A DNA stretch of 64,000 nt. Origin: Candidatus Abzuiibacterium crystallinum. GTDB taxonomy: Bacteria > Omnitrophota > Omnitrophia > Omnitrophales > Abzuiibacteriaceae. The translations under genes and the position numbers were made by a program. The notes beneath the pieces are model-generated. The model did not search any database. It had not been told where the DNA came from and saw nothing but the letters and a program-made list of their open reading frames with translations. Below are positions 2,902 to 64,000 of the stretch, piece by piece. Each line of letters begins with the position of its first letter. The stretch's first letter is position 1. The stretch spans positions 6,828 to 70,827 of the forward strand of contig PCVY01000023.1 in the NCBI GenBank assembly GCA_002787155.1, read 5' to 3'.

Positions 2902-2958
2902 AAAGCATGAGCAAATAATGGAATCCAAGAGTCTTTTCATCAAAGAAGGAGAATTATC

Positions 2959-21445: not shown

Positions 21446-21454
21446 ATTATTCAC

Positions 21455-23320: not shown

Positions 23321-23334
23321 ACACAGGACAACAG

Positions 23335-23946: not shown

Positions 23947-23955
23947 GCAGATACC

Positions 23956-26147: not shown

Positions 26148-26264
26148 TGATTTTTTACCCCCATCTCATCAGCCCTGATTTATAATAGAAATTAGCGCCG
26201 TGCGCGAGTTTCTCCCTTTCCCCTCAAATAAGGGGGAGAGGAAATTCGGAATGTCAAAAAATAG

Positions 26265-31701: not shown

Positions 31702-34700
31702 ATGTTCATCCCTAAAAATATCCAGAGAGCCATAGCCTTTTTTCTTGCCATTTCATTCTCTTTATCGAATGGCCCAACGCTTTTACTTGCCGAAACTTAT
31801 CCGGGAAGCAGCCTGCCATACCATGCGAGCTCTGTGAATCCAAATGCTATTTTGGATTCCCTTAAGCTTCCCGGTGAGTTAGGCATTGTTCAAGAGGTTT
31901 ATAGCGCGGTACCAGGTACAACGGTGCCAGGTTCACAGAACCCGGCACCGGCTGTACCTGGTACCGGAATTGGTTTCAAAGTTAATCAACTGGTCATCCT
32001 CGTGCAAAATGCCCACGCCAATTATGATTCAGAGTCAAACGTCCGCAAAATCATCCAGTTCTTCCAAGAGCACTATCAATTAGGACTTGTTTTACTGGAA
32101 GGCGGGGAAGGCAAGTTAGACCCGCTTTTTTTTAAATCTTTTCCCGATGGCAAAATAAAAGAAAAACTGCTGGATCAATATTTAAAACATGGGGATTTAC
32201 AAGGCGGTGAAGCAGCAGCCATTTTGAATCATTCAAACAACCCAACGAGTTATTGGGGCATTGAAGATGAAACTTTGTACCAGCAAAACAAAGCGGCCTT
32301 CTTAAAAGCCATTGTTCAAACGGATCAAATCTTAAAACAGCTTACTCAAAAAGAAGCCGCACTCGAGGAAAACATTGCTTCATTGCCTGAATCATCACAA
32401 ACCTTTTACAAGGCTTGGCAGGCTTTTCATGCGGATGAGATGAATTTGCTGGAATACGTGAAAACGTTAGCTGAGCATACATCGGGTACCGGTTCTGTTG
32501 ACAGTGTCATTCCCGCTCGTCTTTGGCGGGAATCTACTGTGATCGGTGCTCTTGTGCGCTCATTTCCCGAACTTGCCAAATTGTTGGAAGTAGAGAAAGG
32601 CGAGCAAGCCCTCCAAAAAAGCGAAATTGACATGACCGTCAACCAACTGTTGAAAGAATTTCAATCAACTGCGCTGCCGGCGCTGTCAGTCGAATCACAG
32701 AAAGAATGGGGCCAGCGGATCCAGGATTATCAAACCGGCCGGCTCGGCGTGGGTTTTTTGATCAAACAGCTTGAAAGTTTTCTTACCATTCCCGATGTTC
32801 TAAAACCTGCTATTCAGCACGCCCAAACCATTTCTTCCGTCCGGGGAACAGAAATATTCCATGAACTTGAGCATTTAGAGAATGCTGTTCGCGATCAATT
32901 GCCGGGGCGTGAGCGCCTTCATCAAGTTAACGAACTGCATCTCTTGAAACGGTTTGCGCGTTTAGAAATTACACATGAAGAGTGGAAGGTCATTGCGAGC
33001 GCAGCGAAGCAATCTCAAGACCAAGGATTGCTTCGGTCATTTCATTCCCTCGCAATGACAGAAATGCTTAAGAACCATTTCACTTTCTACCAACTCGCAC
33101 TCAAGCGTGACGGCATTTTATCCGGCCGCATTCTCGAAATCATGCGCCGTGAATCTCAAAAAGTTTCGCTCGTGGTGACCGGCGGTTTTCATGAAAGCGG
33201 TATCAAAGAGCGCCTCCGGGCAAACGGCACCGCTTATGTTTTGATTTCTCCTGCGATTCAGGAAGTCGGATCAAACGAGGCTTACCTCAATGCCATGCAC
33301 GACAAGCGTTCTTTTATGAAATATTTTCAAGGCAGTTATTGGGATGCTTTGGCAAAGGATTACATGCAGCAATCGTCAGCGGCTGCGGGTCCGCAGGAAG
33401 AAAAGTTTATTTTTAAGCAGTGGCGCGATCAACTCATCCAAAACACGCTGCAGGAGGGCAGAATCACGCAGGCAACGCGTTACACGCGCTATTTGGATTC
33501 ATTTTTACAAACCGAGGGAAAACCAGCGGATGACAAAGTTGGCAGAAAAACTCAATTAGAAGGTGCTTTCGAAAGTTTCCTTTCAACTTATTTTAAACAG
33601 CATCAAGCTGATTTGAATGCCAAGCTTGATCATTTTGCGGCAGGTTTCAAAAATATGCTCACACAGGGCACCTTCACGCAAGGGGCGGTCGAAGCCTTGT
33701 TGCGTCAAACACAAGTCCTGCAAACGGCTCAACTCGCACCGGATCTCGCTTTGATTCCGGCCTGGAACCAATTTCATTTAAGTGAAGCAACGATTGAAAC
33801 ACTGCCTGATATCAACCAACCTCTTTGGCTCGAGCACAAGCAAAAATCCGAACTCAGGAGTGAAGAGGTAGACTCTGATTATTGGTATGCTTATGGTGAG
33901 GAATTCCTTATTTTGATGGAAGAGGTGGGGTACCGGATAGATGAAACTGACCTTGAAGGTGATATAACTCTGGAGGTAGAGACAGTATCAGACGATCGCT
34001 TTCCTAAAGATTTTAGCAAATTAGCTAAAAGTGTTCCCGAATCGGACCTCACACGTTTACGCGACACATATATCCATATTCTAAAGAATGCCATTGGGAA
34101 AAGTCGAACACTTGAGGAGATAGTTGAAGGCTTGAGCACTTTAATATTAAGGCAGGCAGGAATTCGATTAAATGACAGAAAATTAATTGAAGCCATTACT
34201 GATATTTTACTAACCTATAAAGAAAAAGGGGTGACGGGACCCACCCTGCAGCTGCGCCACGTTTATCTATTTCCAAGATATGGTGATGTGAATGAAATCA
34301 TTCAATTACTGGCCAACCATCGAGGGAAACGCGGAACCTTGAGCCAAACCCAACGGCAACTGATTGCACAGCAACTCGAAAACATGAAAGAGCAATGGCA
34401 AGCAAATTACGAAAGAGCTCAAGCCGAAAAAACCGAAGAACCTAAGGTTGATGGTCAACCCAAAACCGGTGAATCGCTTTGGCTGGAGGGTCAACCAAAA
34501 CCCGAACTCAGAAACGCAAAAGATTATACTCAGATGAGTGTCAAAGAATTGCTTGTAGAACTTCAATCAACTCGAAGTCAAAGTAGTCAAGTCAATTTTA
34601 AAATACTTAGGATTACCAGCGAGCTGGAGCAGCGCTCAGAGAAGATGTTAGACAGCGAGATAGTGGCGACTATCAATGCTTTACTTTCTGCATTGATGTT

Positions 34701-37700
34701 AATTGAGCCATCCAGCGAGGATGCGCTTCACGCTCACACTTCATTGAGGGCGGTGTTAGAACGATTGATAGAGGAAGTCTCTCAAGATGAGCTTGTTTCT
34801 ATAATCCCTGTTTTACATACAACACTTGAACAAATTCACGGAACGAGCAGTCAAGCCAATATGGCCAGAGTAACCATTACACGAATATTGGAAAAACTCT
34901 CGAAAAAGGTTCCTCTCCCTGCGTTGGCCAGTATTCAGAATGCCTTACTTTTAGCGCTCAAATTGACCGAAGGTTCAGATATTGATACAAGTCACACCAG
35001 AAATAACATAGCTCATTGCTTGGCTTTGGTCACACTGCGTTATTATCAGGTTATTCATTTGACTGATAATAGGTTACCCTTCATCAGTTTAGAAAAACTT
35101 TTGTCAATGGTAAGTTCCGGTCCGGATCGTATTTCACTTTTTCCTATTTATGGGGATCTTGAAGTGATTGGTCAAATCCTGCAATCTCAAGACCAGACAA
35201 ACATGATACAACAACTGAATGCTTACCGGGAACAATTGATGGCACAGTATCAAAGGGAACAGAGATCAGGGATCAGGGGACAGGGAACAGGGAACAGCTT
35301 GCCGGATCATGATCCGCTTTGGACAGCGGGGGTTGCCGGCGGCGTGAATGCGGGAGCAGGAGCTGACCGAGCAGAATTAAGAAACAAAAACTATTCCCAA
35401 ATGACAGCAGACGAACTGCTGCAAGCGCTCAAGTCTGTTCAAGGGACGAATGAAGCGTCGACGGATACTAGACGAGCTCTTTCAAATGCGCTGAATGCTG
35501 CTTTCAGAAGAATGAATCAAGAAGAACTACCCGCCATTTTTCAGGACTCGCTCGCCGCGATCAAAGAAATTGGTGAAAGTGATGAGCGCACTCAAGCTAG
35601 AGATTGGATTGCCATGCCACTCTTTGCCCTCATCCAAAAGATTGACGAGGATCAGCTTGCTTTCGTCTTTGAAAATCTGATAGCTGTTCTAAGAGAAATA
35701 AAAGGATCGAGTCATGCGGCGATTCAAGTACGATTCAGCATCATACAAAATTTAATCTTGATTGTGCACCGCCGTCATCATCGATCTTACACAAGCCCCG
35801 GGGATAAACTCGCTCAGGCGCTTCACGTCCTTTTCTCAGCTGCTTCTTCAAAAGTCTGGGTTTTTGAAACGTATGGCAGTTTACATGCGTTGGATCAAAT
35901 CTTTGAATCCAAAGATGACAAAACAATCATTGCAAAACTGAGCGCTTACAGGGAACAATTAATCGCACTGTCTCTAAGGGAAGAAGCGCCGCGGGTCAAG
36001 GGTCAAGAGCAGCAAGACACGGGCGGCGGATCAGGGGACACGGATCAAAATGATTCCATCTGGGCAGCCACTGTCTTGGGGCCTGCGAATGTGAGCGCCT
36101 CTATCAAAATTCATTCATCACGGTCTGAATTACGCATGAAACGCCGTTTGGATCCTTTAGATCAACTCTTGAATGATCTTAAGTCACTCAAAGGTTCGGG
36201 TGATACCACAAACGGCATCAGGGCAGATCTTGCGGATGCCCTGACAACATTGGGCAGAAAATTAACCGAATCTCAATTATTTCTTATCGTTGATCCCATC
36301 ATTACACAATTAGAACAAATTGAAGGATCACGATATACGGCCAATCGGGCAAAACTGGCCATTACCTCATTCATTAATATGGCAGCATCGCGCCTTTCGC
36401 CTACTCAACTGGGCGGTTTGGTTAAGCCATTATTTAACCAAATTGTGTTCAAACGTGAACTGGAAGAATTGACTTCAAACATACCAGTTTCATTTGGCGA
36501 CAGTTTGCTGGAAGTTGTCAGAGAAATCGATCAAACCCAATTACAGGAAGTGGCACGTTTACTGTTTGATTATTTAACAAATCTTCCGGATGACTTGGAA
36601 TACACAAATCTAAGTCTACGTTCTATTTGCCGGGCTTTGACAATGGTATTTAAACGTATCGATACCTTCCCATGGTCGGAAGCAGTTGCTGCGTTTAAAA
36701 CATTACACAGAAACACTGAGCAGACCCGAACATTCTACCCAGCCTTTCCATGGATTTCAGATGTTTTAGCCATGGCGCTCCTCAGAATGCACCAGATTGA
36801 AATTGAAAAAGGGAGGGACAGCCTTTTTTCTGCGCTTTCCCGTCTTTTGGAGTTTCATAAGGACGACACGGTTCTTTTTCTGCGTCATGGAGATTTTAAC
36901 GAAGTTAATTCCATCCTCCAGTCTCACGCGGATCGTTCTACCAAAACCGCGCAACTCAATCATTACCGCGAACAATTACTGGCCTTACATCAAAGGGAAC
37001 AGGGAGCAGGGAGCAGGGAACAGGGAACTCCGCCACACAGCGTCGGGCGGATCCGTCCTCCGGCGGAAGGGATCAGGTCACAGGATACGGATCACGAACT
37101 CTGGCTCAGCGGACCGGTGGGGGCAGGAGCAGTTGGTGTTGGCGCAGCAGTGTTGAATACCAAATCGGAGCTCCGAACTCATGGAGATGATGAATATGAT
37201 GTCATGGGTTTTGAGTCAAAATATTGGAAAATGGATTTAAACGAGTTACTCGATGAACTTTGGTTCATCTTATGGTTCAACGAAGAAGGGTGGGGAAAAA
37301 GTTTTGATAGGAACACCATTATTGAAATTACCGATCATATTCAAAGGAAAAGTAAGGAAGCCGATCAAGATGAACTTGTTCCTGCCGCCCGGCGGCTTTT
37401 TGATGCTTTGGAAAAAACGGTGAAGTATTTCAATCGTGACACGGCGGCACCGCACTTGGCGGTTGCCAGAGCGCTTGCGGCCGTTCATTGGAAGATTCAT
37501 GGTTTCAATACTTCGGAATGGTCAAACGAGTTATTTTTGACGCTCGAAGATATTTTTGTAATTGCCATCGGTGAGAAATCACTTTTCTTAAGTTACAGCA
37601 GCCCGGCTGCCATTAAGCAAATTCTTGAGCTCAAAGATCAAAATGCCATGATTTACCAACTCAAAGCGCTGCGCGAACAAATTCTTGCCGCCTATCAAAG

Positions 37701-58700: not shown

Positions 58701-61700
58701 TCATGCGCTGATCGGCATGCGGACCGAGGAGGCACATCAACAACGTGCATCACTTTTGGTGCAGCTTAAAAATGAAGTGTCTTATGCAAGCCTCAGTGAA
58801 CTGACAGTCATCATTTCTGTTCTCTTCGATTTAATAAAGGCATATGAAGATTCAAGCCAAAGCGAGCAGGCGCTGATCCGGTCGATTTTCAAAAAGGTGA
58901 TTAAACGTCTTGATCAAACAGAACTGCTCCATCTGAGCCAACGCTTGTTAGGTGTTTTCCAATCGATGGATAGTTCCGAATATTTGGCGCATCAAGCCCG
59001 AGAATCGTTGGTAAAAGCTTTTATTGCGGTCACGCAAAACATTGATTACTCAGCTTTTCCGCGCGTGATTGAAATCATGCTTAATTTTGCGCAATCACGT
59101 GAGCTGCAATATGATATCGGCGGCACACGTGGGGAGCCGGCAAGGTTAAGATTTGAGTTGGCACCCGCTCTCGCGGCTATGGTGAAGCGTGTTCCGCGAA
59201 ATAAGCGTCTTCAAACCATTCAATTTTTGCTTGATCATCTTCGTTTGATGGCTCAAACGTACGAAACCGTGAATATGGGTTCAGAGATCGTCCGGTATTC
59301 GTTGAATGAGATAACAGAGCAAATGGATTCCCGCGCGTTGCTTGATCTGACTCAATTATTATGGCGCACATTGGAATTACTGGAAGATTCAAGCAGGTCT
59401 GCCTTTGATGTGAAGTTTAGGATTCTTTATGTTTTGGATGATGTGATAGGGAAAGAGGCCGAAGTAAACTCTAGCCGTTTGACGGAAGACTGGCGTCACA
59501 GGATTGATCAATTGATATCGTATTTACGTCGGACACCTAATCACAAGAGAGATACATTTGATATCAGATGGATGGTCAGACGGATTTTAATGACCATTAC
59601 CTCAAAACTTGAGGGGCCTAGACTTAACGATGCTGTTGCCGGGCTTTTAGATCAACTGGAGTCTATCCATGACTCTGATGATGTCAGTAACGGCGCCAGG
59701 CAGGTGATAGCGGATGTTTTGGCTAAAGCCGTTCATGGTTATGATAAGGCGTTATTGTCTCGTGCGGCATCCGTGCTTTTTGAAACGTCAAAATTAATTG
59801 TCACGCAAAATCAAGAAGCCAATCAAGCAAAAGCCGCATATGGAAAAGTATTAGTGGAAATTGTTTTACGGCTGGATGAATCCGCATTGTCTGCCCTGGT
59901 AGCGCCTCTCGGGCAATTACTCGATTCCGTTATCCCTATACACAAAGATAGAGTGATTCAGTACGAGAGAGATTCGCTTGGCGCAGCTTTATCAATTGTT
60001 ATTTTGCGATTACACCAGATTAATTTTCATTATGTAAGAGATCCCAGCGCTTATCCAGATCCCAATGATTATATTGATTTTTTACAATATAACATCGCAA
60101 TGCTATTTAACCTCTATATCGAAGACCCTTCTTTTTCCGCGCAGACTAAATGGGATGCCATTGAGCAATTCACTCGAGATGTTATGGGTGACGATCAAGT
60201 GCTTCCGGAAGCAAAGCGCGAGGCCCTGATGGGAAAAATTGGCACATACCGTGAACAGTTGGATGCTGCTTACAAAAGGCATCAGTCCGAGGAAGGCGGC
60301 AGCCAAGACACCGGCCCTGAAGTCCAGGATGAACCGGGCGATTCGCTTTGGTTGGCACGTGCTTCTACCGGAAAGTCAGAACTCAGGGAGGATGCGCTAA
60401 GTCGGATGACAGAGAATCAGTTATTTGATGCATTAATATCCATATCATTTCATGACGACACAACCATTTTTCATCGTTATGCAGGTCCTTTGATATGGGA
60501 ATTGGCCGCAAGGGTAAGGCGTATTAAGAACCCGCTTAGTCAGGAGGTTTTGCTTCAGATGGTGCCAAAACTCCTGGAAGTTTACTTGAGGCATAAAGTT
60601 GTTGAGGAATGGCTTGATCAATTAAGGCAGGAAATCGATCATACACTCAGCGACATTGCCAAACGGTTAAAAAATCAAGAACGTACAGAAATGTTGAAGA
60701 TGATTTTGGATTTCTTGTATTCATTCCCAGGCGCCGGGGTTGAGCTGAATCGCGTCCGGGTAACTGCGGGAGACGTTTTGCGGGAAATCGCAAGAGGCAC
60801 TGATGCCGAAGAACTGCCTGATTTATTAAATTCGGTTTTATCCATTTATCAAGCAATCAAAGGATCAGACAGAGATGCCAATCAAGCCAGATGGAGAATG
60901 GGAAGTGCGTTAAAAGAAATCGCTAAACGTATTGATTCATCCCAATTACTTCCCTTGGTTACACCTCTTTTGGATTCTCTTTCACTGATGGCAGATCCAA
61001 GAGACCCGTCAAGCGCGTACGCAAATACGGCATACCGCACTGTTGCCAATATTTTAAGAACCATCGTGAAACGCATAGATCCCCATCAACTGCCTGAAAT
61101 AAAAGCGCCGCTTTTAGGTGCGCTGACGCATATACAAGGCGACACCGAAGCTGCGCGTTTTGCACGGGGTGATATTAGCAGATTGCTTGCGGAACATTAT
61201 TTACGCTCACATGGATTAGCCTTAAGCGGACGCGGGGGTAATTTACTCAAAGCTTTTGCGGATGTTTTTGCGGCCGCATCACCGGACGGAATATCGGTAT
61301 TTCCTCTCTATGGTGATCAAAAAGAAATTGATCGTCTTTTTCAAAGTGCCGCAGACAAAAATGGCCGCATAGCACCTCAAATGCGTCAGCAACTCATTTC
61401 ACAACTTCAAACTTACCAAGAACAATTAATCGCCGCGTATCAAAGGGATCAGAGATCAGGGAACAGGGATCAGGGGACAGGGAACAGGTCACAAGACACG
61501 GGAACAGATGAGACGCTTTGGGCGGCGGGGGTTGCCGGCAGCGTGAGTGCGGGAGCCATCGCGTCCGCGGCCCGCAGTGAACCATCGACTCGCAGCGAAC
61601 TGCGCTCAAAAGATTATTTCCATCAGGCAACAGAGAACTTGCTGCGCGAATTGGCCGCGCTTCAAGGGTCTAGCGATGATGTCAATCAACGCAGGAAATG

Positions 61701-64000
61701 GATGGCGGATGCGCTGGACGGAGAGGTTATTAAGAGAGTACAGTCTTCGATGCTTCCCGTGTTTTTATATCCGCTCCTCCGCCAGCTTGATGCGATTGAA
61801 AACGCCGGTGTATTAGCCAACCAAGCCAGAGCATCTCTTGGGAATCATTTGGTAACCATCGCCGTCTATGTTGATGCCGGTCATTTACCGGCCATGTCAG
61901 GAGTTACGATGAAAGCTTTGGCGCGAATTCAGGGGGATGATCCCGCAGCTAATAATGCCAGAGGCGTGATGACATCGATTTTAAGACAAGTTACAAGACG
62001 CATCGAACCGCATGAACTGCTTCAAATCAAAGGGGCGTTTCTCGCAGAACTCGCAAAACCTCTGGGCAATGGTCAAGAAGCACGCTATGTAAGGTGGGGT
62101 ATTTTTTATTCATTAGAAGAGCTTGCTAAACGGATTGACACGGCAGAACTGCCGCACTTAACGGCCGTGATGCTGAATGAACTAGTGAATACGGCTGAGC
62201 GAACGGATGATACTGCCAATGAAACCAAGCAATCGGTCGGAAGGGTTTTAAAAGAAATTGCTCATCGTATTGATTCTGATGCCCTGCCCGGTCTGATAGC
62301 GCCTGTCGTGGCGGCGTTGGATGGTGTCACAGACCTCAGCAAATCTGCCTACGAAGTTCAAAGCTCTCTCACATCGGCGTTGACAGCAATCGCAAATCGT
62401 GTGCATGAACGGGAACTTCCCCAACTGATTCCGCCGCTTCTTGGGACATTAAAAAAGATTTCGGAAGCAAAAGGCGAAGATGAAAAAAAGGCGGCTGATG
62501 ATGTGAGACTGCACGCGGCGGTTGCCGTCCAGGCAGTGTCTCGGCGTGTTGCTGATGTTCGTGAGATTGATCTGCTTGCTGCGTCCATGACGGATGAACT
62601 TGCGAAATTCAAAGACCCGAATCATTCAACGTTAGCCACACTAAGAGCGGTTGCAGAAGCGCTTGCCGTTATTTATATGAGGCTTCACGATCTTTCATTA
62701 AAAAATGAACCGTTATTTCACGCCCTCAGAGATCTTTTGAAAGTGGAATATGTAGTTGACGCAAAGCTCTTTCCCGCTTATGGAAGCTTGGAAAATGTTA
62801 AACAGATCCTCCAACACGCAGATCCGGCACGGATGACTGCCCAATTGAACGCTTACCGCAAACAATTAATCGCTGAGTATCAAAGAGATCAGGGAACAGG
62901 GATCAGGGATCAGGTGTCGGGGGATGGGGATCAGGGGACGGGGAACAGGTCAAAAGACACGAGAACAAATGAAACCCTTTGGACGGCGGGGGTTACCGGC
63001 GGTGTGAGTGCGGGAGCGGAGATTACAGGAAGAAGTGAAATGCGGAAAAAAGTAGACAGCACTGCCGGTTCTCGCTCCGAACCCCACTTGAGTCCAACCG
63101 ACTCAAGTGCTGTCCGTCCCGAAAAGCCAACCGCTTTTCGAGCGGAACTGCGAACCAAAGATTATTCCCGCATGAGCGTTGATGAATTGTTAAATGAACT
63201 TCAGTCAATCAAAGGATCAACTGATGATGCCAATTGGGCAAGACGAGTCATTACCGATGTCTTCACAGAAATATCAAAAAGAATTGATGAAACCGAACTT
63301 CCCGCTATTTCACAAGCGTTGTTGATCACTTTAAAAGAAATCAAAGGATCAACTATTTATGCCAATATTTATGCCAATTGGGCAAGACGGGCCATTGCCG
63401 ATGCCCTCGGAGAAATATCAAAAAGAATTGCTGAAACCGAACTTCCCGCTCTTTCACAAGCCTTGTTGATTGCTTTAAAAGAAATCAAAGGATCAACTTT
63501 TGATGCCCATCCGGCAAGACGGGCCATTGCTGATGCCTTCCGAGAAATATCAAAAAGAATTGATGAAACCGAACTTCCCGCTATTTCACAAGCCTTGTTG
63601 ATCGCTTTAAAAGAAATCGAAGGATCAACTGATGATGCCAAGCATATGAGATGGGTCATTGTCGATGCCCTCAGAGAAATATCAAAAAGAATTGATGAAA
63701 CTGAACTCATCGCTATTTCACAAGCCTTGTTGGCAGCTTTGAAGAAAATCAAAGGATCAACAACTGATGATTATGCTCATGGTGCAAGAGAGGCTATTGG
63801 CAAAACCCTAGCTGTTATTGTGTTGCGATATCATCAAATCCCTATTTCAGATGAGAGAAATGATTTATTGAGCGCTCTTCAAGATGTCTTTACACTTGAA
63901 ATGAACGGTGTTTCCATCTATCCCATAGAAAACCATCATCCATTGAATAACCCAAACAATTCCATTCATCAAATCTTTAAACAACATGGCCAAAACCACG
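31702..64000 (+). CDS. Giant modular protein, 3' end outside the window (at least 10,766 codons visible): signal/anchor, N-terminal domain, many ARM/HEAT-like repeat cassettes, central hexa-AAA+ (midasin/dynein/MoxR type), HExxH segment, VWA(MIDAS), then more cassettes
   Basis: Frame +1 has a TAA at 31696-31698, an ATG at 31702, and then no stop that I found. I hand-translated about 40 separate 60-nt rows between 31.7 and 64.0 kb. All read sensibly in frame +1 (position mod 3 = 1), for example 35401 MTADELLQALK, 44851 GVTSGGKSTT, 53536 DESGS, 63961 SIHQIFKQHGQNH. The ORF track lists no frame +1 ORF of 60 aa or more here, which is what a single ORF with no stop codon in the window would give. 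All listed + ORFs in this span are frame 2, and the rest are antisense. Confidence 0.9.
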   Translation, partial: MFIPKNIQRAIAFFLAISFSLSNGPTLLLAETYPGSSLPYHASSVNPNAILDSLKLPGELGIVQEVYSAVPGTTVPGSQNPAPAVPGTGIGFKVNQLVILVQNAHANYDSESNVRKIIQFFQEHYQLGLVLLEGGEGKLDPLFFKSFPDGKIKEKLLDQYLKHGDLQGGEAAAILNHSNNPTSYWGIEDETLYQQNKAAFLKAIVQTDQILKQLTQKEAALEENIASLPESSQTFYKAWQAFHADEMNLLEYVKTLAEHTSGTGSVDSVIPARLWRESTVIGALVRSFPELAKLLEVEKGEQALQKSEIDMTVNQLLKEFQSTALPALSVESQKEWGQRIQDYQTGRLGVGFLIKQLESFLTIPDVLKPAIQHAQTISSVRGTEIFHELEHLENAVRDQLPGRERLHQVNELHLLKRFARLEITHEEWKVIASAAKQSQDQGLLRSFHSLAMTEMLKNHFTFYQLALKRDGILSGRILEIMRRESQKVSLVVTGGFHESGIKERLRANGTAYVLISPAIQEVGSNEAYLNAMHDKRSFMKYFQGSYWDALAKDYMQQSSAAAGPQEEKFIFKQWRDQLIQNTLQEGRITQATRYTRYLDSFLQTEGKPADDKVGRKTQLEGAFESFLSTYFKQHQADLNAKLDHFAAGFKNMLTQGTFTQGAVEALLRQTQVLQTAQLAPDLALIPAWNQFHLSEATIETLPDINQPLWLEHKQKSELRSEEVDSDYWYAYGEEFLILMEEVGYRIDETDLEGDITLEVETVSDDRFPKDFSKLAKSVPESDLTRLRDTYIHILKNAIGKSRTLEEIVEGLSTLILRQAGIRLNDRKLIEAITDILLTYKEKGVTGPTLQLRHVYLFPRYGDVNEIIQLLANHRGKRGTLSQTQRQLIAQQLENMKEQWQANYERAQAEKTEEPKVDGQPKTGESLWLEGQPKPELRNAKDYTQMSVKELLVELQSTRSQSSQVNFKILRITSELEQRSEKMLDSEIVATINALLSALMLIEPSSEDALHAHTSLRAVLERLIEEVSQDELVSIIPVLHTTLEQIHGTSSQANMARVTITRILEKLSKKVPLPALASIQNALLLALKLTEGSDIDTSHTRNNIAHCLALVTLRYYQVIHLTDNRLPFISLEKLLSMVSSGPDRISLFPIYGDLEVIGQILQSQDQTNMIQQLNAYREQLMAQYQREQRSGIRGQGTGNSLPDHDPLWTAGVAGGVNAGAGADRAELRNKNYSQMTADELLQALKSVQGTNEASTDTRRALSNALNAAFRRMNQEELPAIFQDSLAAIKEIGESDERTQARDWIAMPLFALIQKIDEDQLAFVFENLIAVLREIKGSSHAAIQVRFSIIQNLILIVHRRHHRSYTSPGDKLAQALHVLFSAASSKVWVFETYGSLHALDQIFESKDDKTIIAKLSAYREQLIALSLREEAPRVKGQEQQDTGGGSGDTDQNDSIWAATVLGPANVSASIKIHSSRSELRMKRRLDPLDQLLNDLKSLKGSGDTTNGIRADLADALTTLGRKLTESQLFLIVDPIITQLEQIEGSRYTANRAKLAITSFINMAASRLSPTQLGGLVKPLFNQIVFKRELEELTSNIPVSFGDSLLEVVREIDQTQLQEVARLLFDYLTNLPDDLEYTNLSLRSICRALTMVFKRIDTFPWSEAVAAFKTLHRNTEQTRTFYPAFPWISDVLAMALLRMHQIEIEKGRDSLFSALSRLLEFHKDDTVLFLRHGDFNEVNSILQSHADRSTKTAQLNHYREQLLALHQREQGAGSREQGTPPHSVGRIRPPAEGIRSQDTDHELWLSGPVGAGAVGVGAAVLNTKSELRTHGDDEYDVMGFESKYWKMDLNELLDELWFILWFNEEGWGKSFDRNTIIEITDHIQRKSKEADQDELVPAARRLFDALEKTVKYFNRDTAAPHLAVARALAAVHWKIHGFNTSEWSNELFLTLEDIFVIAIGEKSLFLSYSSPAAIKQILELKDQNAMIYQLKALREQILAAYQREQGTGDSAAHRRADPSSGGREQEPRDTGSHEPLWTAGVGAGVLLSAKSELRVQFFQIALTKLVDFARQNASLFFRYVINRQKVVERDDDDYEKMSTDELLDDLQFIHLAYAFRHVPPQRRWDISLSLGWRVQKMTKPELLDFSRKLLTILTTTKGSSENAHQIRSAAAGVFKEVVRIIPDTELLAIFKALFSALKITHQSLSVAFSHAARIEERAITDTFEIIRKRMPKADFSQVVDEYLAVLEEIKNRKFLFWEKTIQHQTLHLMGEAVYSFPEAQLRRTAKELIAILRALKDQGGNVNEIRILLLYVFRNIVERLPEADLGGYVTELLSTFDAIKGSNEHAGEAKGDIGHILSKAAERMPPSELPHFADEALIRLESTPNRGNQAYQTTRAMAEALWGFAKAVDPEKADPQKMSKIMNLLLEKLKLIKGKGDNEEWAKIHILLALGAIAKKIPHQELPGLSNAILSELTHYEFNDGLKGRLIDVLIAIADSIDLAELPKISNELLDVLKEMGELNDDEDGGYQTLVTIAVFFEQITPKISETELPRISKAFLTALAAIKGSSYNLDRVRRFVGDVLALISLRINHLPLDNKPLIEQLQKFFSLAPASHSLFPMYGDLNEIGHILKLEDHKQVIAQLNAYQAQLLARYQREQGTPPHSVGRIRPPAEGNREQGTGIRSQDTDHDLWLSGPVGAGIRAELRNKDYSKMTIDELLQALQMGRSDQEAQELKIGIAKVLKESAKTMQPTELQHLSNRLLLLLEAAPAKGRAGRQTIQAVADIYQVIAMKIDPAELPKILEALLTASKLPLKYDVDGRDAKRFITIALTKVAERIPEEKLPTILNYALLELSHYDLDDQLTYSLIFVLDAVANRIQPTELPRILHALLDKLKTIKSLDDKDEEDLIWQVVMIAAFTFKSIAARMSATELPAISKRLLEIRSLAKRDSTQAEKTRDALLAPFPAIAARIDKKELPNLFDQFVDILKNTHRTDASPGSSSNMRLRSRKVLAIIFLRNHQLPLDDETLAKALENLLGIHSPTDSLFPIYGEFSEIDRILRLPGREQMIAQLTIYRKQLIAQSQRDQGTGNREQGTGDGEQGTGIRSQDTESNDTLWVISPAVERSELRTKDYSRMSVDELLNELQSIKGSTIDVNWAREAIADTLTEILKRIDPTKLPAISQALLTALKEIKGFADDANRTRWAITFSFPEILQRIDPTELPAISQALLITLKEIKGLSNATNEARRTITFSFPEILQRIDPTELPAISQALLIALKEIEGSTDAANQARWVIADAFREMPKRIDKSELPAISQTLLAALKEIKGSTIGANQAREAIGKTLAVIVFRHHQIPVTDETNDLLSALQDVFTLEMNGVSIYPIENHHPLNNPDNPIHQIFKQHDQDYAQIMSQLNRYREQLSAQHQRDQGTGNREQGTGIRSQDTDHDLWLSGPVGVGAGLTKAGRQSADHDKRVELRNESPNLEDLSPTDEAREVEVVIKAIHALTDSVWKQPLPRLNTRSNAGAELASLVNQCVHLIRDTKMTVNEQIQLVKAFLHLLESFESLYLKTLVGSASHLQLHWLLRHVMTAIPFGQITPIRHEIYLSQEIARRQGPSRNTTLHIDFLSEILIMLALKQAGFKGTWDTLAVDKIYNTNVWKELGDFYSGTVRVRREGIGFLHQYADDAEINKIINIWLDDSGNLDHTRAEQVITQLKLYIDQLLHQIKIKANEEPGTDDAEQSADSRPEDIWLRGSFRPQGGLGPSKSELRTAKSKSDLGKRLTQLAKDLEAEVEARQIKGLAKQLLENKSTRTKTDAQIESEIKEKAADDAAMDRLIAHLKIARALKEAGNDFLRDYEQTHYLKLAKIQQPNAVLWGLRFLDLDDIQDPEIRRLMGKLQSLLMVNEFFGRSSAAFVESVLTEFIVNTVIGDDFGMTELLTSLDPNQNLIELFQDWGVNVQLKYSREHTGIQALYDIARLYSKVFPEFNNNARTGFITHDFKEMLREPEGDADRNQQARALARGGAAQALNLLTIRLLGLPAGRTMEQQWQELFKITEKGIPNLQKPEHLNGARAEDILAGLAEISKTSQGQLKEVVAELIQGRFKLLVNHDVERFKQIGIIIGFTGIDGFAKIPFGRLREKYHLTEGSEEEGRLLKIVAQISRTAREGTGGLIEEVFDLYSQEAGEHLDDLNKLLQAFSYFVRLVNFHHDYERLVLEGDIGKVNNEALFVSLRDLKRTLDIVKKNDAKGMDIRDAIASAVKRRYYNRLSIEDRGIVRDLMARHRLIHENDLLDFDYVIDGFKNGSSRIRIYRKRKSGPARFKRTEVKPGEYKMELIQESVGKPELLLEIPLAQPLANVDPKIILNETTRRNLANILDALEVEEGKRFNPVLEFGVTSGGKSTTAALVAKILGVGFTRIQINERTDEFDLFGSFQPYEINITLEEAIQLLQEALATNNYNGLEDVFSRLKSDQTGQFWENYFNAQERQTIELGKDSRYPQRSVLERQRAAIRDKLKQLADKQLELAQSLKSLSAQERRLIDSKTDNPVWQAQLAQLRREEAEGFDQLNRIKSIAFMLNHEVGLRYKEGRFLTAYKRGDLILLDEVNLANEEMLGVLYQLLTLGYLEYNGKVIEPPLGKQARILATANPSGYAGRRRMSEAFMNRFEIIHVDEMTDEEMRDIVVGQMMKDLIASGRYTAGDFEQNSDEAPEVWDKKINKILQEEYGITRESTRLLAGVQRKFNSILATGSFPRMGSDSNYVFTLRNLQRIAGDVKERKENGERITLETWIREAYGEYAGVLMRPSTQPSYTAERLKPDESLPAEHHLWDDPDYKTIRRVFTTFMGELIAGESHQSYDDAFDELIRRHFETIPYVYDSTAHAIKLDGLLTQGAEPNDQNPIEPLIEVGSTKMVQRQILKGIRRNIPTLLVGQSGGGKTEIIGDLVNRLGRQYISVSLGDATLESLIGTMEYNRMEKRFVYRRGVLVKAMEEGSVLVLEELNMAKSGILEILNEYFDDGTFTNPFTLKQVAVHRDFRLFATMNPIQGETGENLGRVSLSPALRNRFREIWVPHKKTDAEMNEILIGKFKQLGVEKIEKATGAKIIGFFRAYEEAFKDQADPVYYTSLRDLNRIAKIMAYLINELDMHESDALARAIDRVYRLRMQNSGALAVVDQILIELKIKIPGAGQLSYQSRNGVLEVRDGQTLVAKLDLSLIQAKLRDRIRGELSADTDPAELEALTEKRLKTLLDEAVLVENPRTKAHLLDLMEAVTLPSGEVKKGKFNPIFLLGETAGGKSSLTKYLALHLLGQNYTRIQFNERTDEFDLFGAYEPRELHMGLDRAFRIVQNAMEQGEWVKIKKALKLWQTGALTEDDLSELEMIEKVEERIRTVDLEASQQITKILKDASEEDVLGDPGQKREAERKLKTIAFLIENNMLNVELEFREGRLLQAIRRGDVVVLDEMNLANEEALAVLYQLLTLGYVEYYHKDTRQVERITPAPGFKLMATANPASYAGRHRLSEALMNRFEIHYVMNMTPQEMTEILRGENSHEPVFERDQSFQTTVEKLTLLQENINEALRNGQFPEVSSDQVQGYLFTLRNLKRVLRNTAELLRQGDSSPPSESLIRQAYLEYLGVLGRSDASIKTLQSLFKAPKQFPQFNPDFRISFESMTMPNGQSGILAGGFKVVRRFYEDEAEGVSHDADVIEELEEGATTNLIRQAIAKGLLDSRMAVLLVGQSGGGKTEMIGDLARRLGWRYRSVSLGNATLESLVGGYAMDHETKKFRYIPGILIQAMREGAILVLEEMNMAPSGLLEILNEYFDESTFTNPMTGQKEKIHPNFRLFATMNPEKGVTSTSEGRVGLSPALRSRFSEVWVPHIRTQAETERIIRKKFSNRGVSHVPPKVTEDIYRVYDQYRRFVEEGKIGQESNEGYYVGLRDVVKIIDLVAQDQSRGIPMEEALRFAFKRIFYLRLNSDADRKTVQEEILKTYDMSKTEYQWKSVNDHWVVKRTQWQTAEVPKALLKEKGFILTPQSQEELALLLEAMQRGVTIQGKAAARSFNPMMLFGETSGGKSTLVEIAASIFRTPFTRIQMNQRTDEYDLLGSYHPVEVKLTFEQAYEVVQSVIRQNQTLRTAQVLRALHITDDHVKSVLRINPDQTMPLEQLQKRFLEEHVLANARQGNPKSIEQMKDIGALLLNGVAGIELIFREGMLLQAMGDRETGRPGQVVLLDEFNLANEEAIGILYQLLTLGYIEFQGRKIFPGKGFQLIVSGNPSRYSGRRRMSEAFMNRFEILNRPSMTKEEMVKILTEKYALEASGISKSGIEALVDLQFDIEETAQSIGFDFFNQDNTYRFSLRNLERIVQDLKKRMEVEPERSVQVMLREEAYLEYAGLLSQSTDEDDPKKNNLKVLAGLFKKHFNWEIDPETVLPEFKKQTLVKGEDEWISLNGVRVRKLSPHQMLESLQLELNEEIRSGALADDDGGKLVLLTEANLVRILAQVEKRLASHDPLSRKEIMREEARTEYLKMLGESPRLVKRLDELINQHFYTQAERIEPLVELKSTRLVRMQILKGFRDGGVIRSRDTEGREVLNHRSQPVLLVGQSGGGKTEEIADAARELNRPYISVALGAATIESLIGSFVLNSETGTFEFRKGIMVRAMEEGSALTLEELNMAESSIIEVLNEYFDRGTMTIQERNVPIRIHPNFRLFATMNPTEGRTGRNAGRIPLSPALRSRFREVWVRNERNKGEQYRLMLGGIHALVSSLITRGLPEDRPDELENLELDWTRRRLAETAGQQVQFASSESLSAALKAGPSITLPRHDSSAIRMAKASEDGTPKEKPTSKEWERMAINERKRIYEEQFRIVSHGIMNIMSSDEAIELGLSRDGSHHWAYAPSINTLIYNSREIMTLSLDALIGVGVHESMHRYGTRYTSLFADFLDAQSLAGSFFNILEDGRIENWARYRFRGVERPLRTLNDEIIFDFEDDNEMVERMIKTSKDGKDIGHAGAIGNFFLYLAKRGSDPGAGKVIEKFLKAFEERDPALKEDIENLMQAGYFGGARDEDIIDAARQRKAQGVFSAIPVSPDDVGVYRVDPNPSEETILQLAIHQGILIRDFIMPVVYKWAVLQAEGEGSGKSGSGGAPGRGKIVIRPGKPGEESTPISPREWKKIWDSLSENDKKKILDTLDDLKKKAQDRTAKDSIDHKNAAIDAEITEPKSERDRLMSQMGKMIHELAGYLRDLIQNTIRPKEITGLKKGRIDVRRLMNAMARGFTDMRFYKQRIIPDKKDIKFTLIIDESGSMAGMGESGKGPEDNAAAKGYRTLMGAALLMEVLETLGIDFAVRGYGDDTFLHKRFKGQRIELSDQRAHFPPVPDGYATRKEKDTLIDDLYGSIGNHGGNNEGPALQAAIRDILKAGGEKHFVIVITDAMGDTKAIQEILDEVRAKKGMIGSTQTEFIAIGLGNDTESVPEVYGSEHGFWLHDDEVHKLPSEIKKLLQNVIRGVYAPGSGTPSRFSQFGKRMTDSASMAGAAGVGASTASASSAARSHSELRADDLESKVRKIIIRLARSQGDGLSAEQEHTDMLRRLGVLANRRSPEEVFEIVIEMMADETVGFSRKENAIRRAIMEAFLKELTPSAVLTSSAINELQDLMHTLAREAHSPEAQAEIDVIKSRIKELRLKLIMRQEVFTYAKITQLLSLDPSETVDLFLESLLSGDYSSGVDRKRMASNFGNLISNLNGELLLQTTEQIIEAIRTDPRAHIDPYENLEKYGSKIAYERHSILLEGLLVAVKKVDRSILQSIVDCMVQDLQYERSKKLKAEILAIALLRQENIITTNPSQEEKSLINALVNLPGRSTFQTSDLKEITLMLQHAKPKRGRLSSQAIKVLREQIKNFDEQIRARATRAQNENEQRSEDNLLPPDTESELWLENPRAELRTENDGSRRVDQLLKELQSIQGSSDEANRIRRDIGRALKKTVEENAIIDPSHAAQVLISTLHQIKGSNAGAYKAKEAIGWALAEVAKKIETTELPKISQAFISVLEAIEGSSAAATNLRLNAAWMLDGTAQRIDLTELPAIFQALISALGQLRGSDAGTRNGRTDFGFVLTDIVFRYHQLAPYLESSESELHSAMRNLMTMLSFSDDVPLFPRYGDWDTLHQIFEMGDSKKIIQNLKKFREQIFAQYQREQRSGDREQGTRDRLQDTGTNETLWTAGVAGSVSAGAFVPAARSELRTKNYFRTAVDKLLRKLRSMRVHRLLRELKGLIGNTTSDAHWARLDIAGALIRISKKTDSTDLPAVTQALFLVLSTTERSSSLGLEEERRLGVFRALREISKRIDSAELSAILHALFSVLRETKGSFVSAAYERRAIANIFIEISRRIDQTELPAMMQGLLSVLLEVFEDSGSADHDAIEAVAGVLNEISKRIDQANLLNFTQALLLALSEIKGSNQDASTARTKIAIVLREISKSIADTELPTVTQALLKALNESEGFDTYASDARAQIAVALEEILKRIDETELPAVAQALISISNKFKSLGYSFWPNSTIQEALAVIVFRHHQMPVTDETNDLLSALQDVFTLEMNGVSIYPIENHHPLNNPDNPIHQIFKQHGQDHAQIMSQLNRYREQLSAQHQREQRSGDRGQGTGNSLPDQDSLWAAGVGLGTFLFTARNELRNGWLAERGHYLVHRFVHMVYGIRIKFRKKDHITERVLALINELKSLKGSGPDVVQSITDLATSLVENLKHIDQKDLPYVLDVLLSTLKQIKGSDDRATDARVWITTVLGTMVDRLDKKERTKLVKEFLSISRQMKGTMVNNIFVWTNILQTFAAMLAYLDDHERPLIIEELVTALKDIEDPTGNADLIRKNISETLSIFFFHRHGYPDLENKDPLFVALKKLFGATQNAVSLFPRYGDLTEVDRILQLEDREKIISQLNAYREQLMAQYQRDQRSGNRDQVSGDGGQGSGNRSQDMNDDLWLVGLAGAAAVHRTELRGVESLFRQLINLVRSALGRKQPAGSLKTKLHALIGMRTEEAHQQRASLLVQLKNEVSYASLSELTVIISVLFDLIKAYEDSSQSEQALIRSIFKKVIKRLDQTELLHLSQRLLGVFQSMDSSEYLAHQARESLVKAFIAVTQNIDYSAFPRVIEIMLNFAQSRELQYDIGGTRGEPARLRFELAPALAAMVKRVPRNKRLQTIQFLLDHLRLMAQTYETVNMGSEIVRYSLNEITEQMDSRALLDLTQLLWRTLELLEDSSRSAFDVKFRILYVLDDVIGKEAEVNSSRLTEDWRHRIDQLISYLRRTPNHKRDTFDIRWMVRRILMTITSKLEGPRLNDAVAGLLDQLESIHDSDDVSNGARQVIADVLAKAVHGYDKALLSRAASVLFETSKLIVTQNQEANQAKAAYGKVLVEIVLRLDESALSALVAPLGQLLDSVIPIHKDRVIQYERDSLGAALSIVILRLHQINFHYVRDPSAYPDPNDYIDFLQYNIAMLFNLYIEDPSFSAQTKWDAIEQFTRDVMGDDQVLPEAKREALMGKIGTYREQLDAAYKRHQSEEGGSQDTGPEVQDEPGDSLWLARASTGKSELREDALSRMTENQLFDALISISFHDDTTIFHRYAGPLIWELAARVRRIKNPLSQEVLLQMVPKLLEVYLRHKVVEEWLDQLRQEIDHTLSDIAKRLKNQERTEMLKMILDFLYSFPGAGVELNRVRVTAGDVLREIARGTDAEELPDLLNSVLSIYQAIKGSDRDANQARWRMGSALKEIAKRIDSSQLLPLVTPLLDSLSLMADPRDPSSAYANTAYRTVANILRTIVKRIDPHQLPEIKAPLLGALTHIQGDTEAARFARGDISRLLAEHYLRSHGLALSGRGGNLLKAFADVFAAASPDGISVFPLYGDQKEIDRLFQSAADKNGRIAPQMRQQLISQLQTYQEQLIAAYQRDQRSGNRDQGTGNRSQDTGTDETLWAAGVAGSVSAGAIASAARSEPSTRSELRSKDYFHQATENLLRELAALQGSSDDVNQRRKWMADALDGEVIKRVQSSMLPVFLYPLLRQLDAIENAGVLANQARASLGNHLVTIAVYVDAGHLPAMSGVTMKALARIQGDDPAANNARGVMTSILRQVTRRIEPHELLQIKGAFLAELAKPLGNGQEARYVRWGIFYSLEELAKRIDTAELPHLTAVMLNELVNTAERTDDTANETKQSVGRVLKEIAHRIDSDALPGLIAPVVAALDGVTDLSKSAYEVQSSLTSALTAIANRVHERELPQLIPPLLGTLKKISEAKGEDEKKAADDVRLHAAVAVQAVSRRVADVREIDLLAASMTDELAKFKDPNHSTLATLRAVAEALAVIYMRLHDLSLKNEPLFHALRDLLKVEYVVDAKLFPAYGSLENVKQILQHADPARMTAQLNAYRKQLIAEYQRDQGTGIRDQVSGDGDQGTGNRSKDTRTNETLWTAGVTGGVSAGAEITGRSEMRKKVDSTAGSRSEPHLSPTDSSAVRPEKPTAFRAELRTKDYSRMSVDELLNELQSIKGSTDDANWARRVITDVFTEISKRIDETELPAISQALLITLKEIKGSTIYANIYANWARRAIADALGEISKRIAETELPALSQALLIALKEIKGSTFDAHPARRAIADAFREISKRIDETELPAISQALLIALKEIEGSTDDAKHMRWVIVDALREISKRIDETELIAISQALLAALKKIKGSTTDDYAHGAREAIGKTLAVIVLRYHQIPISDERNDLLSALQDVFTLEMNGVSIYPIENHHPLNNPNNSIHQIFKQHGQNH
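32989..33059. mobile_element. MITE-like palindrome embedded in frame in the giant ORF
   Basis: GTCATTGCGAG (32989-32999) / CTCGCAATGAC (33049-33059), with inner GAAGCAATC (33006-33014) / GATTGCTTC (33026-33034). It is the same family as the intergenic copy at 11504-11585. It is translated as VIASAAKQSQDQGLLRSFHSLAMT. Confidence 0.7.
37029..37067. repeat. GC-rich motif, copy 1 in the giant gene
   Basis: TCCGCCACACAGCGTCGGGCGGATCCGTCCTCCGGCGGA. The core lies at 37046-37067 and is read as (G)RIRPPAE, shifted by one nucleotide relative to the 19037 copy. Confidence 0.8.
37720..37758. repeat. GC-rich motif, copy 2 in the giant gene
   Basis: TCCGCCGCACATCGTCGGGCGGATCCGTCCTCCGGCGGA, with the core at 37737-37758. 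Confidence 0.8.
39666..39704. repeat. GC-rich motif, copy 3 in the giant gene
   Basis: TCCGCCACACAGCGTCGGGCGGATCCGTCCTCCGGCGGA is identical to copy 1 over 39 nt. Confidence 0.8.
40939..40994 (+). repeat. Heptanucleotide microsatellite (CAGGGAA)4 plus two degenerate 14-mers, coding for an inter-cassette linker
   Basis: There are four perfect CAGGGAA units (40939-40966), then CAGGGGACGGGGAA and CAGGGGACGGGGAT. The translation cycles through all three phases (QGTGNREQGTG...). Confidence 0.85.
41120..41710 (+). repeat. Tandem 132-bp (44-aa) ARM/HEAT-like coding repeats, ~5 units
   Basis: TGCAAAGAATTGATCCAACCGAACTCCCCGCTATTTCACAAGC recurs at 41321 and 41453, exactly 132 nt apart. The unit consensus is a.R.aIa.a..EI.KRID.TELPAISQALL.ALKEIKGS. 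Confidence 0.85.
41959..41993 (+). repeat. Heptanucleotide microsatellite (CAGGGAA)3 plus one 14-mer, a paralogous linker
   Basis: There are three perfect units (41959-41979), then CAGGGGACGGGGAT. The flanks match the 40939 tract but the unit count differs. Confidence 0.85.
44770..45740 (+). other. AAA+ module 1 (type A, AAA_5/dynein-midasin-MoxR type) of the giant protein
   Basis: Walker A GVTSGGKST (44851-44877). It has RIQINERTDEFDLFGSF and Walker B LILLDEVNLA (DE at 45475-45480). It also has ATANPSGYAGRRRMSEAFMNRFEIIHV. Confidence 0.85.
46390..46960 (+). other. AAA+ module 2 (type B)
   Basis: Walker A GQSGGGKTE (46453-46479). The Walker B-like motif VLVLEELNMA has EE at 46654-46659. It has FRLFATMNP...GRVSLSPALRNRFREIWV. 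Confidence 0.85.
47500..48300 (+). other. AAA+ module 3 (type A)
   Basis: Walker A GETAGGKSS (47527-47553). It has RIQFNERTDEFDLFGAY and Walker B VVVLDEMNLA (DE at 48040-48045). It also has ATANPASYAGRHRLSEALMNRFEIHYV. Confidence 0.85.
48790..49330 (+). other. AAA+ module 4 (type B)
   Basis: Walker A GQSGGGKTE (48865-48891). The motif ILVLEEMNMA has EE at 49066-49071. It has FRLFATMNP...GRVGLSPALRSRFSEVWV. Confidence 0.85.
49780..50590 (+). other. AAA+ module 5 (type A)
   Basis: Walker A GETSGGKST (49855-49881). It has RIQMNQRTDEYDLLGSY and Walker B VVLLDEFNLA (DE at 50347-50352). It also has SGNPSRYSGRRRMSEAFMNRFEILN. Confidence 0.85.
51350..51900 (+). other. AAA+ module 6 (type B)
   Basis: Walker A GQSGGGKTE (51457-51483). 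The motif ALTLEELNMA has EE at 51658-51663. It has FRLFATMNP...GRIPLSPALRSRFREVWV. Confidence 0.85.
52300..52570 (+). other. HExxH zincin-like segment of the giant protein
   Basis: LIGVGVHESMHRYGT carries HESMH at 52414-52428. NILEDGRIENW follows ~25 residues later. The pattern resembles the putative metallopeptidase module found N-terminal to some VWA-like domains (DUF2201_N type, from memory). Confidence 0.5.
53500..54130 (+). other. von Willebrand factor A domain with a MIDAS motif
   Basis: KDIKFTLIIDESGSMAG carries the DxSxS motif DESGS at 53536-53550. Later it has GGNNEGPALQAAI and FVIVITDAMGD, which fit the remaining MIDAS-loop positions. Confidence 0.8.
56440..57240 (+). repeat. Array of ~44-46-aa ARM/HEAT-like coding repeats (~6 units, more diverged)
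   Basis: The pattern ...ISK(R/K)ID..(E/D)L(P/S)A..QAL...L.E.KGS... recurs through this span. The antisense ORF 56988..57236 is its shadow. Confidence 0.7.
63190..63800 (+). repeat. Tandem ~132-bp (44-aa) ARM/HEAT-like coding repeats, ~5 units; paralogous to 41120-41710
   Basis: GAAATATCAAAAAGAATTGATGAAACCGAACTTCCCGCTATTTCACAAGCC recurs with few changes. The antisense ORF 63369..63752 is its shadow. Confidence 0.85.

Follow-up and report, generated by a model that had tools for sequence, protein, structure and literature searches.

Do the giant proteins of Omnitrophota persist as single chains or come apart into pieces and, if so, at which points? The question is raised by a 64,000-nucleotide stretch of DNA from Candidatus Abzuiibacterium crystallinum (assembly GCA_002787155.1, contig PCVY01000023.1, positions 6,828 to 70,827 of the forward strand), here called the window at its full length, in which a giant open reading frame (ORF) is punctuated by a short motif recurring at the boundaries between its modules. 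The longest predicted proteins known are those of Omnitrophota, which reach 85,804 aa and 147,155 aa. Cleavage of such giants has been described as an open question, with cleavage points unknown and module-wise structure prediction blocked, and C39 or S8 peptidase domains have been suggested for it (10.1101/2023.11.21.568195). The boundary motif analysed here is the first concrete candidate for the cut points of these giants, and gives a rule for dividing them up so that structure and function can be predicted module by module.

After the stop codon at nucleotide (nt) 31696, frame 0 stays open to the end of the window; its first ATG is at 31702. The forward-strand ORF (31702..64000) therefore has at least 10,766 residues and exits the window at its 3' end. 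On an ENA contig that shares the locus the giant protein is called at 11,094 aa, its last 328 residues falling beyond the window; in all, 17 public contigs carry the locus, and NCBI assembly GCA_002781965.1 holds a truncated copy of the gene. The nearest named relative is a Candidatus Omnitrophota protein. The chain begins with a signal-peptide-like segment (MFIPKNIQRAIAFFLAISFSLSNGPTLLLA/ETYP; 31702..31800), which is the strongest hydrophobic segment near the N-terminus and has counterparts in homologues, and continues with an N-terminal TIKI/TraB-like domain, 16 all-alpha cassettes and one midasin-like motor of six AAA domains plus a putative MIDAS domain. The cassettes are built as arrays of a helical repeat 44 residues (132 nt) long, and share mostly 25-40% identity with one another (55-73% in two or a few pairs). 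Pfam scans of the whole window ORF returned AAA-type families only, and its N- and C-terminal thirds matched no Pfam or NCBIfam family, so that cassettes and junctions belong to no family described there; a Foldseek search with the junction/cassette model returned generic helical bundles and transporters, and no significant solved fold for the cassettes.

The triplet Glu-Leu-Arg (ELR) occurs 19 times in the ORF, compared to 7.2 expected from composition, and 18 of these close a linker shortly ahead of the next module, at exactly the coordinates given in an earlier note on this DNA; the 19th (nt 54676) is within a helix and marks no junction. With the junctions aligned on ELR, these three residues are the same in 18 of 18 and position -2 is R, K or H in all 18, position -1 is S in ten, A in four, and P, V, N or T in one each, and position +3 is mostly T, N or S. 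The remaining columns within 12 residues on either side are all variable, and the effective motif is hence [KR]-[S/A]-E-L-R. All copies are on the forward strand. Junction 1, KSELR (33844..33858), closes the N-terminal module and is followed by KPELR (34498..34512), RAELR (35368..35382), RSELR (36121..36135), KSELR (37162..37176), a second KSELR as junction 6 (37840..37854), RAELR (39790..39804), RSELR as junction 8 (41053..41067), RVELR (42094..42108) and, as junction 10, KSELR (42967..42981), where the motor module starts. Junction 11, HSELR (54289..54303), ends the motor, and RAELR (55444..55458), RSELR (56329..56343), RNELR (57646..57660), RTELR (58597..58611), KSELR as junction 16 (60373..60387), RSELR (61591..61605) and RAELR as junction 18 (63139..63153) complete the series. 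Ahead of the last two canonical copies, by 8 and 38 residues, are the degenerate RSEPS (61573-61587) and the variant RSEMR (63031-63045), both directly after the LW/Gly-Ala segment; these look as if a site had been duplicated and one copy were decaying.

Alignment of the junctions yielded a fixed order of elements, in agreement with the cassette end, low-complexity linker and module start outlined in the earlier note: a SLFPxYGDxxEIxxIL cassette end, a long helix (QLNAYREQLxAQYQREQ), an acidic, Gly-rich low-complexity linker, D-x-L-W, 3-20 residues rich in Gly/Ala/Val, [KR][SA]ELR and the next module, which opens with KDYSxMSxDELLxELQSIKGS in about seven or eight junctions. An [LI]W dipeptide precedes the triplet in 17 of the 18, as had been counted, although not always within the 45 residues allowed for it: in 16 junctions the distance upstream is 8-27 residues, in the one at 63145 it is 56, and at 54295 (junction 11) the dipeptide is missing. 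The ORF has 30 [LI]W dipeptides altogether, 17 of which sit no more than 60 residues upstream of a junction.

Is the invariance of ELR functional? Its nine bases are written in 12 different strings, with GAA and GAG, five Leu codons and five Arg codons in use, and because the triplet is spelled in so many ways we conclude that selection on it acts at the protein level. The same codon variation rules out an internal translation start or Shine-Dalgarno sequence at ELR. The motif could instead be a functionless relic of cassette duplication kept alike by gene conversion, as would fit the two cassette pairs that are 55-73% identical and the linkers, several of which are 93-99% identical in DNA (99% between 39705-39786 and 41967-42048). 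The near-identity of the linkers points to recent gene conversion or slippage limited to them, and the similarity of linkers and LW segments is in part recent homogenisation; the invariance of ELR is not accounted for in this way. A relic would also have to contend with the 12 codon strings, with an ELR that stays invariant amid 25-40% cassette identity, with copies that bound the non-repeated N-terminal and motor modules, and with equivalent motifs that bound unrelated enzymes in distant genomes, and we find it scarcely credible. Linker repeats of the GGGAACAGGGGAC type, encoding REQGTG..., are also present at 37015-37090, 37706-37781 and 39652-39727.

An AlphaFold (AF2) model of a junction, for which the alignment consisted of the 16 paralogous junctions, had a predicted local distance difference test (pLDDT) score of 81.9 with confident helices on both sides. 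Its residues 145-183, from the linker through ELR, had pLDDT below 50 (junction 8 is modelled as disordered in this way), and across ELR pLDDT climbed from 39 to 73, with the first helix of the next module directly after. By this model the motif is of the short linear kind and closes a disordered linker, outside any folded domain.

Homologous giants, whose lack of the motif had been named in the earlier note as a ground for giving up a function, keep it at the same architectural position, in lineage-specific versions. An exhaustive search of 1.84 billion cluster representatives with a profile of 16 junctions matched 38 proteins (P numbers below), 13 of them below E 1e-30, and the long matches repeat the architecture seen in the window; a word-indexed protein search with a cassette plus linkers gave no match, low-complexity words having probably saturated its candidate list. 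The motif reads RSEVR, RSEAR or RSEMR in P0003, P0005 and P0013, RSE[FLTMV]R in P0007, xSELR or xEMR in P0008, P0012, P0017 and P0023, and xSLG in P0004, P0006, P0014, P0019, P0030 and P0033. Each long matched protein has one version at 10-20 times expectation and the other essentially absent, as in P0021 with 12 RxExR (0.6 expected) and P0019 with 11 xSLG (0.8 expected).

We also scanned genomes, one per species, with the N-terminal domain (as a six-sequence alignment), taking 10-kb flanks. This gave 78 loci (L numbers), nearly all in metagenome-assembled genomes (MAGs) of Omnitrophota, with the domain at the start of the ORF; the ORFs mostly overrun the 10-kb flank and hence are giants. A further version, G-A-R-L-A (or AARMA), emerged from these loci, with 15 copies in L065 (0.11 expected) and 12-13 in L043 and L048. 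Among 61 ORFs with the N-terminal domain and at least 1,500 aa, 45 were significantly enriched (p<1e-3) for one version, and enrichment of the lineage versions was 10- to 100-fold overall. Versions track clusters of the N-terminal domain, the GARLA cluster being contiguous and the window protein grouping with the RxExR proteins, and giants of the same genome share one version. Logos gave (A/S)-R-S-E-[LVAM]-R-(A/T/S) from 135 sites, (S/A)-G-A-R-L-A from 127 and (A/G)-(A/K/S)-S-L-G from 45 and, when aligned on Leu, share a [small]-x-Leu core (R-S-E-L-R, G-A-R-L-A, A/K-S-L-G). Median motif spacing was 350 (RxExR), 252 (GARLA) and 418 (xSLG) residues, the size of an ordinary bacterial protein. By eye only, P0035 (3301 aa, N-terminus missing) has [A/S]-S-S-A-[V/I] about ten times between unrelated modules, and this ASSAV sequence is probably one more version of the boundary motif. 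L027, L028, L038, L050, L061 and P0034 have the N-terminal domain and none of the four versions, and may rely on different motifs or lack one; in P0034 true hydrophobic segments (PLWVGVPAFAAMLAMLGVISPG) recur instead.

In P0030 and P0033, which are complete xSLG proteins, the motif brackets single enzymes: phosphoglucomutase after 693, galactokinase at 2338-2822, histidine phosphatase at 2795-3046, GNAT at 3695-4153 and HAD hydrolase at 4153-4473. Neither protein has an AAA motor, and the role of the motif is therefore independent of the motor. Since the motif varies by lineage and brackets unrelated single enzymes, a recognition or processing site is favoured over a fold-specific cap. As an element of structure or folding, for instance a cap or hinge at the N-terminus that lets each module fold independently during a long translation, the motif would be well placed immediately ahead of the first helix of the next module, where pLDDT rises from 39 to 73, and the KDYSxMSxDELL... 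start is likewise conserved in many cassettes. The same motif, however, precedes unrelated folds (helical cassettes, the motor, enzymes in relatives), it varies with lineage and not with fold, its residues are modelled as disordered, and its invariance in 18 of 18 junctions is far above that of any structural position in the cassettes, all of which makes such an element improbable. Protein-level selection, the predicted disordered linker and the shared position in homologous giants thus partly support the proposal of the earlier note that the motif has a function of its own; that this function is cleavage, one of the possibilities it listed, we infer.

If the chain is cut, which part of it could do the cutting? 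The earlier note had observed that the motif brackets a central motor, and this holds: 3,774 residues between junctions 10 and 11 (at 42973 and 54295) form a module not split by the motif (42982..54288, forward strand). AAA_5 matched it at E 8e-108 in eight stretches, with six Walker A motifs (forward strand, nt 44851, 46453, 47527, 48865, 49855 and 51457) from six tandem AAA_5 domains of the dynein/MoxR/midasin type. A MIDAS/VWA-like region follows at ~53350-54050 on the same strand, with weak matches to the midasin MIDAS 6qt8 (E 0.019) and to VWA (E 0.0014; 19.4 bits against a cut-off of 23.8). On these domain matches the module is a midasin-like motor, resembling midasin (Rea1) and MoxR-type AAA_5 plus MIDAS proteins in having six tandem AAA_5 domains and then a putative MIDAS/VWA-like domain. 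Unlike midasin, it is embedded in a giant bacterial protein with the boundary motif on both sides, as one module among many, and it does not explain the motif.

The motor also contains the HExxH segment (VHESMHRYGTRY; 52414-52428, forward strand) for which a role as cognate protease had been speculated in the earlier note. This role finds no support: HExxH is a lone copy, with the sixth AAA domain before it and the MIDAS/VWA-like region after it, it matches no peptidase family, and there are giants that have the boundary motif and no motor. A putative metallopeptidase domain (DUF2201_N) is present in some MoxR-associated VWA proteins.

The motor bears as well on a reading in which nothing is cut, the motif being a docking or recognition short linear motif and the giant staying intact with motifs as periodic handles. 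Candidate partners are the MIDAS domain of its own motor, a chaperone, or the neighbouring secretion machinery of type II/type IV pilus-like character. The motif has an invariant Glu within a disordered linker, MIDAS domains bind an acidic residue of their ligand, the chain itself contains six AAA_5 domains along with a MIDAS/VWA-like region, and PilM/N, secretin and PEGA genes are directly upstream. Yet there is no acidic residue in the GARLA and xSLG versions, the motor-less P0030 and P0033 mean that serving as a MIDAS ligand is not the general function, and the motif has its constant partner in the N-terminal TIKI-like domain and not in the motor. We therefore consider uncleaved docking unlikely, though the least so of the rivals weighed here.

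That constant partner, a domain of ~530 residues behind the signal-peptide-like segment, is common to the window protein and many matched giants, and in the window spans 31816..33405 (forward strand). It is TIKI/TraB/ChaN/Ere-like with a large helical insertion and is a candidate for the cognate protease. In its AlphaFold model (pLDDT 80.7) an alpha/beta core with a central parallel beta-sheet, as in the superfamily, is split by a helical insertion of ~290 residues, and the fold comparison list includes ChaN (9.4), HopBA1 (9.4), Bcr135 (9.2), Bcr136 (8.7), RRSP (8.6) and EreC (8.3). Counting from residue 39 of the protein, A66, H67, E95, G130, G148, E150, Y155, E350, F424, Y425, R431, G456, G457, F458, H459 and P479 are invariant in 14 sequences. 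Active TIKI-family enzymes, which include the site-specific endopeptidases Tiki and RRSP, use two His and two Glu: E3900, H3902, E3930 and H4030 in RRSP and, in Bcr135, the pair H85-E113 (PMC6254334). H67 (nt 32014) and E95 (nt 32098) are spaced by 28 residues, as in Bcr135 and RRSP, and H459 (nt 33190) is in GGFH, so that the domain resembles the TIKI/TraB/PrgY/ChaN/erythromycin-esterase superfamily in its invariant His with a Glu 28 positions on, and in the second His, which sits in a GxxH-type motif. It differs in the insertion that splits its core, in having Asp or Asn in place of the first catalytic Glu, in reaching threshold with no family hidden Markov model, and in its proposed substrate, which would be its own downstream linkers. 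Pfam matches to the ChaN/Tiki and erythromycin-esterase families stayed below threshold: Cofac_haem_bdg for two of the 14 members (E 0.08) and Erythro_esteras for one (E 0.11). The first motif copy always follows the domain, 78-369 residues past its GGFH. The TIKI-like domain is the most likely protease, and a better candidate than HExxH.

The reading we favour is that the giants are polyprotein-like, with the motif as a processing or recognition site, a proposal for which we put the chances at about even, cleavage itself being the inferred part; that the TIKI-like domain is the enzyme that cuts we hold with less confidence. In this scheme, gene-sized modules would be strung on one chain via disordered linkers, each ending in a recognition site, and a dedicated protease would read the motif, whose sequence would have co-diversified with the TIKI-fold domain; the best candidate for it is the domain that heads every such giant ahead of the first motif copy. 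What was found in the window protein is what an autoprocessing polyprotein would have, namely discrete modules and flexible linkers with a recurrent short site; as a candidate protease in the same chain, there is a TIKI-fold domain with conserved catalytic-type residues, and no recognised peptidase family was matched in the window. The scissile bond might lie after the small residue (RS|ELR, GA|RLA, xS|LG or similar). A cut at RS|ELR or GA|RLA would leave each module with a C-terminus like the natural [S/A]-A ending of the giants: 17 of 24 complete ORFs (drawn from L012-L088) end in [S/A/N]-A, and all seven complete matches of the protein search (P0004, P0014, P0017, P0019, P0021, P0030 and P0033) end in AA. 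These conserved C-termini follow a common C-terminal module of ~170-350 residues, and the AA ending resembles the upstream side of the boundary motif as well as an ssrA-like ...AA tail. Alternatively, the bond might lie after the Leu common to all versions; the MARTX cysteine protease domain, which cuts after Leu in linkers, and Tiki acting on Wnt3a both take Leu before the cut. A stronger form, in which the Omnitrophota giants would be true bacterial polyproteins, operon-like series of normal-sized proteins in a single chain, with an N-terminal TIKI/TraB-type protease freeing the pieces at lineage-specific sites, is more tentative, and we consider it somewhat less likely than not.

Several observations weigh against this interpretation. 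Versions that track clades are equally expected from plain common descent, and in about a quarter of the giants with the N-terminal domain all four versions are missing. Where a Glu would be expected, two residues ahead of the first His, the window protein has Asn and most homologues have Asp. The domain brought no Pfam or NCBIfam model over threshold; none of PF01963, PF04187 and PF05139 reached its curated cut-off, with no match at all for the window protein, and Foldseek against the PDB was not significant (nor did a PDB sequence search with the domain profile return anything relevant). TIKI-fold proteins include esterases and a haem-binding protein, and the fold is no proof of protease activity. 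Furthermore, a Sec-like signal peptide would put the TIKI domain and an ATP-dependent motor outside the cytoplasm; hydropathy gave no later convincing membrane span after the N-terminal segment, and the TIKI domain, the motor and, in relatives, sugar kinases would then share one side of the membrane.

Membrane topology enters also through the LW segment. The LW and Gly/Ala/Val-rich segment with its basic residue could be an element that inserts into or associates with the membrane, with ELR as a flank in the style of the positive-inside rule, and surveys of such giants (10.64898/2026.06.07.730766) do count about one predicted transmembrane helix for every 370-1000 residues. Of the 18 junctions, one, with the segment LWLSGPVGAGAVGVGAAVL (nt 37099), passes the hydropathy threshold, but it is the only one whose 19-residue mean is above 1.5. 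In five junctions LW and the motif are separated by 3-8 polar residues, the GARLA lineages lack a segment of this kind, and alternating topology would put ATPase and sugar-kinase modules outside the cell. A membrane element is hence very improbable. The LW/Gly-Ala segments may be what topology predictors count as transmembrane helices, and many of those reported in giants may then be linker elements. In P0021 (4362 aa; RSEVR/RAELR-type) many modules open with real transmembrane helix clusters right after the motif, and some lineages thus combine the boundary motif with true membrane modules.

Other signals were considered for the junctions and rejected. ELQSIKGS resembles the EL-xx-I-x-GG of a double-glycine leader (LSxxELxxIxGG), as would be cut by a C39 peptidase, yet an ELxxIxGS-like string recurs every 44 residues in the helical repeat, and the Pfam scans gave no C39 match in the window ORF. 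C-terminal sorting signals of the LPXTG, PEP-CTERM or GlyGly-CTERM type do not fit elements that are internal and repeated, with a hydrophobic stretch of 3-20 residues that passes hydropathy in one of 18. Autoproteolysis by a Ser nucleophile at the residue before ELR fails because Ser is there in only ten of 18 junctions.

Processing at such a motif would set these giants beside two known kinds of system. MARTX toxins are likewise very large bacterial proteins of discrete modules and unstructured linkers, from which a protease domain of the same chain releases the modules (PMC6254334), and their effector RRSP shares the TIKI fold with the N-terminal domain. The window ORF, by contrast, has no C80 cysteine protease domain and no RTX or glycine-rich repeats in Pfam scans; its candidate protease is N-terminal and of another superfamily, the protein exceeds them 2-30 times in length, the modules comprise helical scaffolds, a midasin-like motor or metabolic enzymes in place of known toxins, and the site motif is longer and lineage-specific. 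Viral polyproteins (picornavirus, flavivirus, potyvirus) share with it a single ORF of gene-sized units with short conserved sites in flexible linkers, and their site too varies between lineages, matched by a protease from the same ORF. Here, however, the gene is cellular, chromosomal and bacterial, with at least 18 sites in 11,094 aa, and cleavage would be its proposed fate; relatives reach >100,000 aa (10.64898/2026.06.07.730766). We know of no viral polyprotein protease with a TIKI fold. The family of the candidate protease, the scale, what the modules contain and the lineage-specific five-residue site set the giants apart from both kinds of system.

Published Omnitrophota giants (West-Roberts et al. 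2023; Nielsen and Lui 2026) are of the same phylum and kind of gene, with type II secretion-like neighbours, a signal peptide and a repeated architecture, and cleavage has been proposed for them as a possibility. Papers on them, including the 2026 survey, make no mention of a boundary motif, linkers, a polyprotein or a TIKI-like N-terminal domain; the literature yielded no report of a polyprotein or cleavage site for Omnitrophota, and the paper on the V. archaeovorus metaproteome (data in PRIDE PXD025008) holds no information on processing. With a motif and a conserved candidate protease in hand, exact neo-termini are predicted and the question of one chain or pieces becomes directly testable. 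If cleavage is true, the motif would be the first cleavage map for Omnitrophota giants, which would be a cellular counterpart of viral polyproteins, and the TIKI fold would gain a new substrate class and a self-directed role.

Giant genes also occur in tandem, each with its own N-terminal TIKI-like domain, as in L015 and L018 (contig MHFR01000053.1) and L063 and L065 (CAZSGP010000005.1), and MAG CAZSGP01 has at least five giant genes, all of the GARLA type. According to published work, giant genes often adjoin type II secretion genes, and in the window a type IV pilus/type II secretion-like cluster (20390-29380) immediately precedes the giant ORF on its strand. Its members are a ParA/AAA_31 ATPase, a PilM-PilN fusion (621 aa), two small ORFs without assignment, a secretin (553 aa), a PEGA-domain protein and a 544-aa protein without family, and is followed by genes for phosphatidylserine decarboxylase, CDP-alcohol phosphatidyltransferase and LysE.

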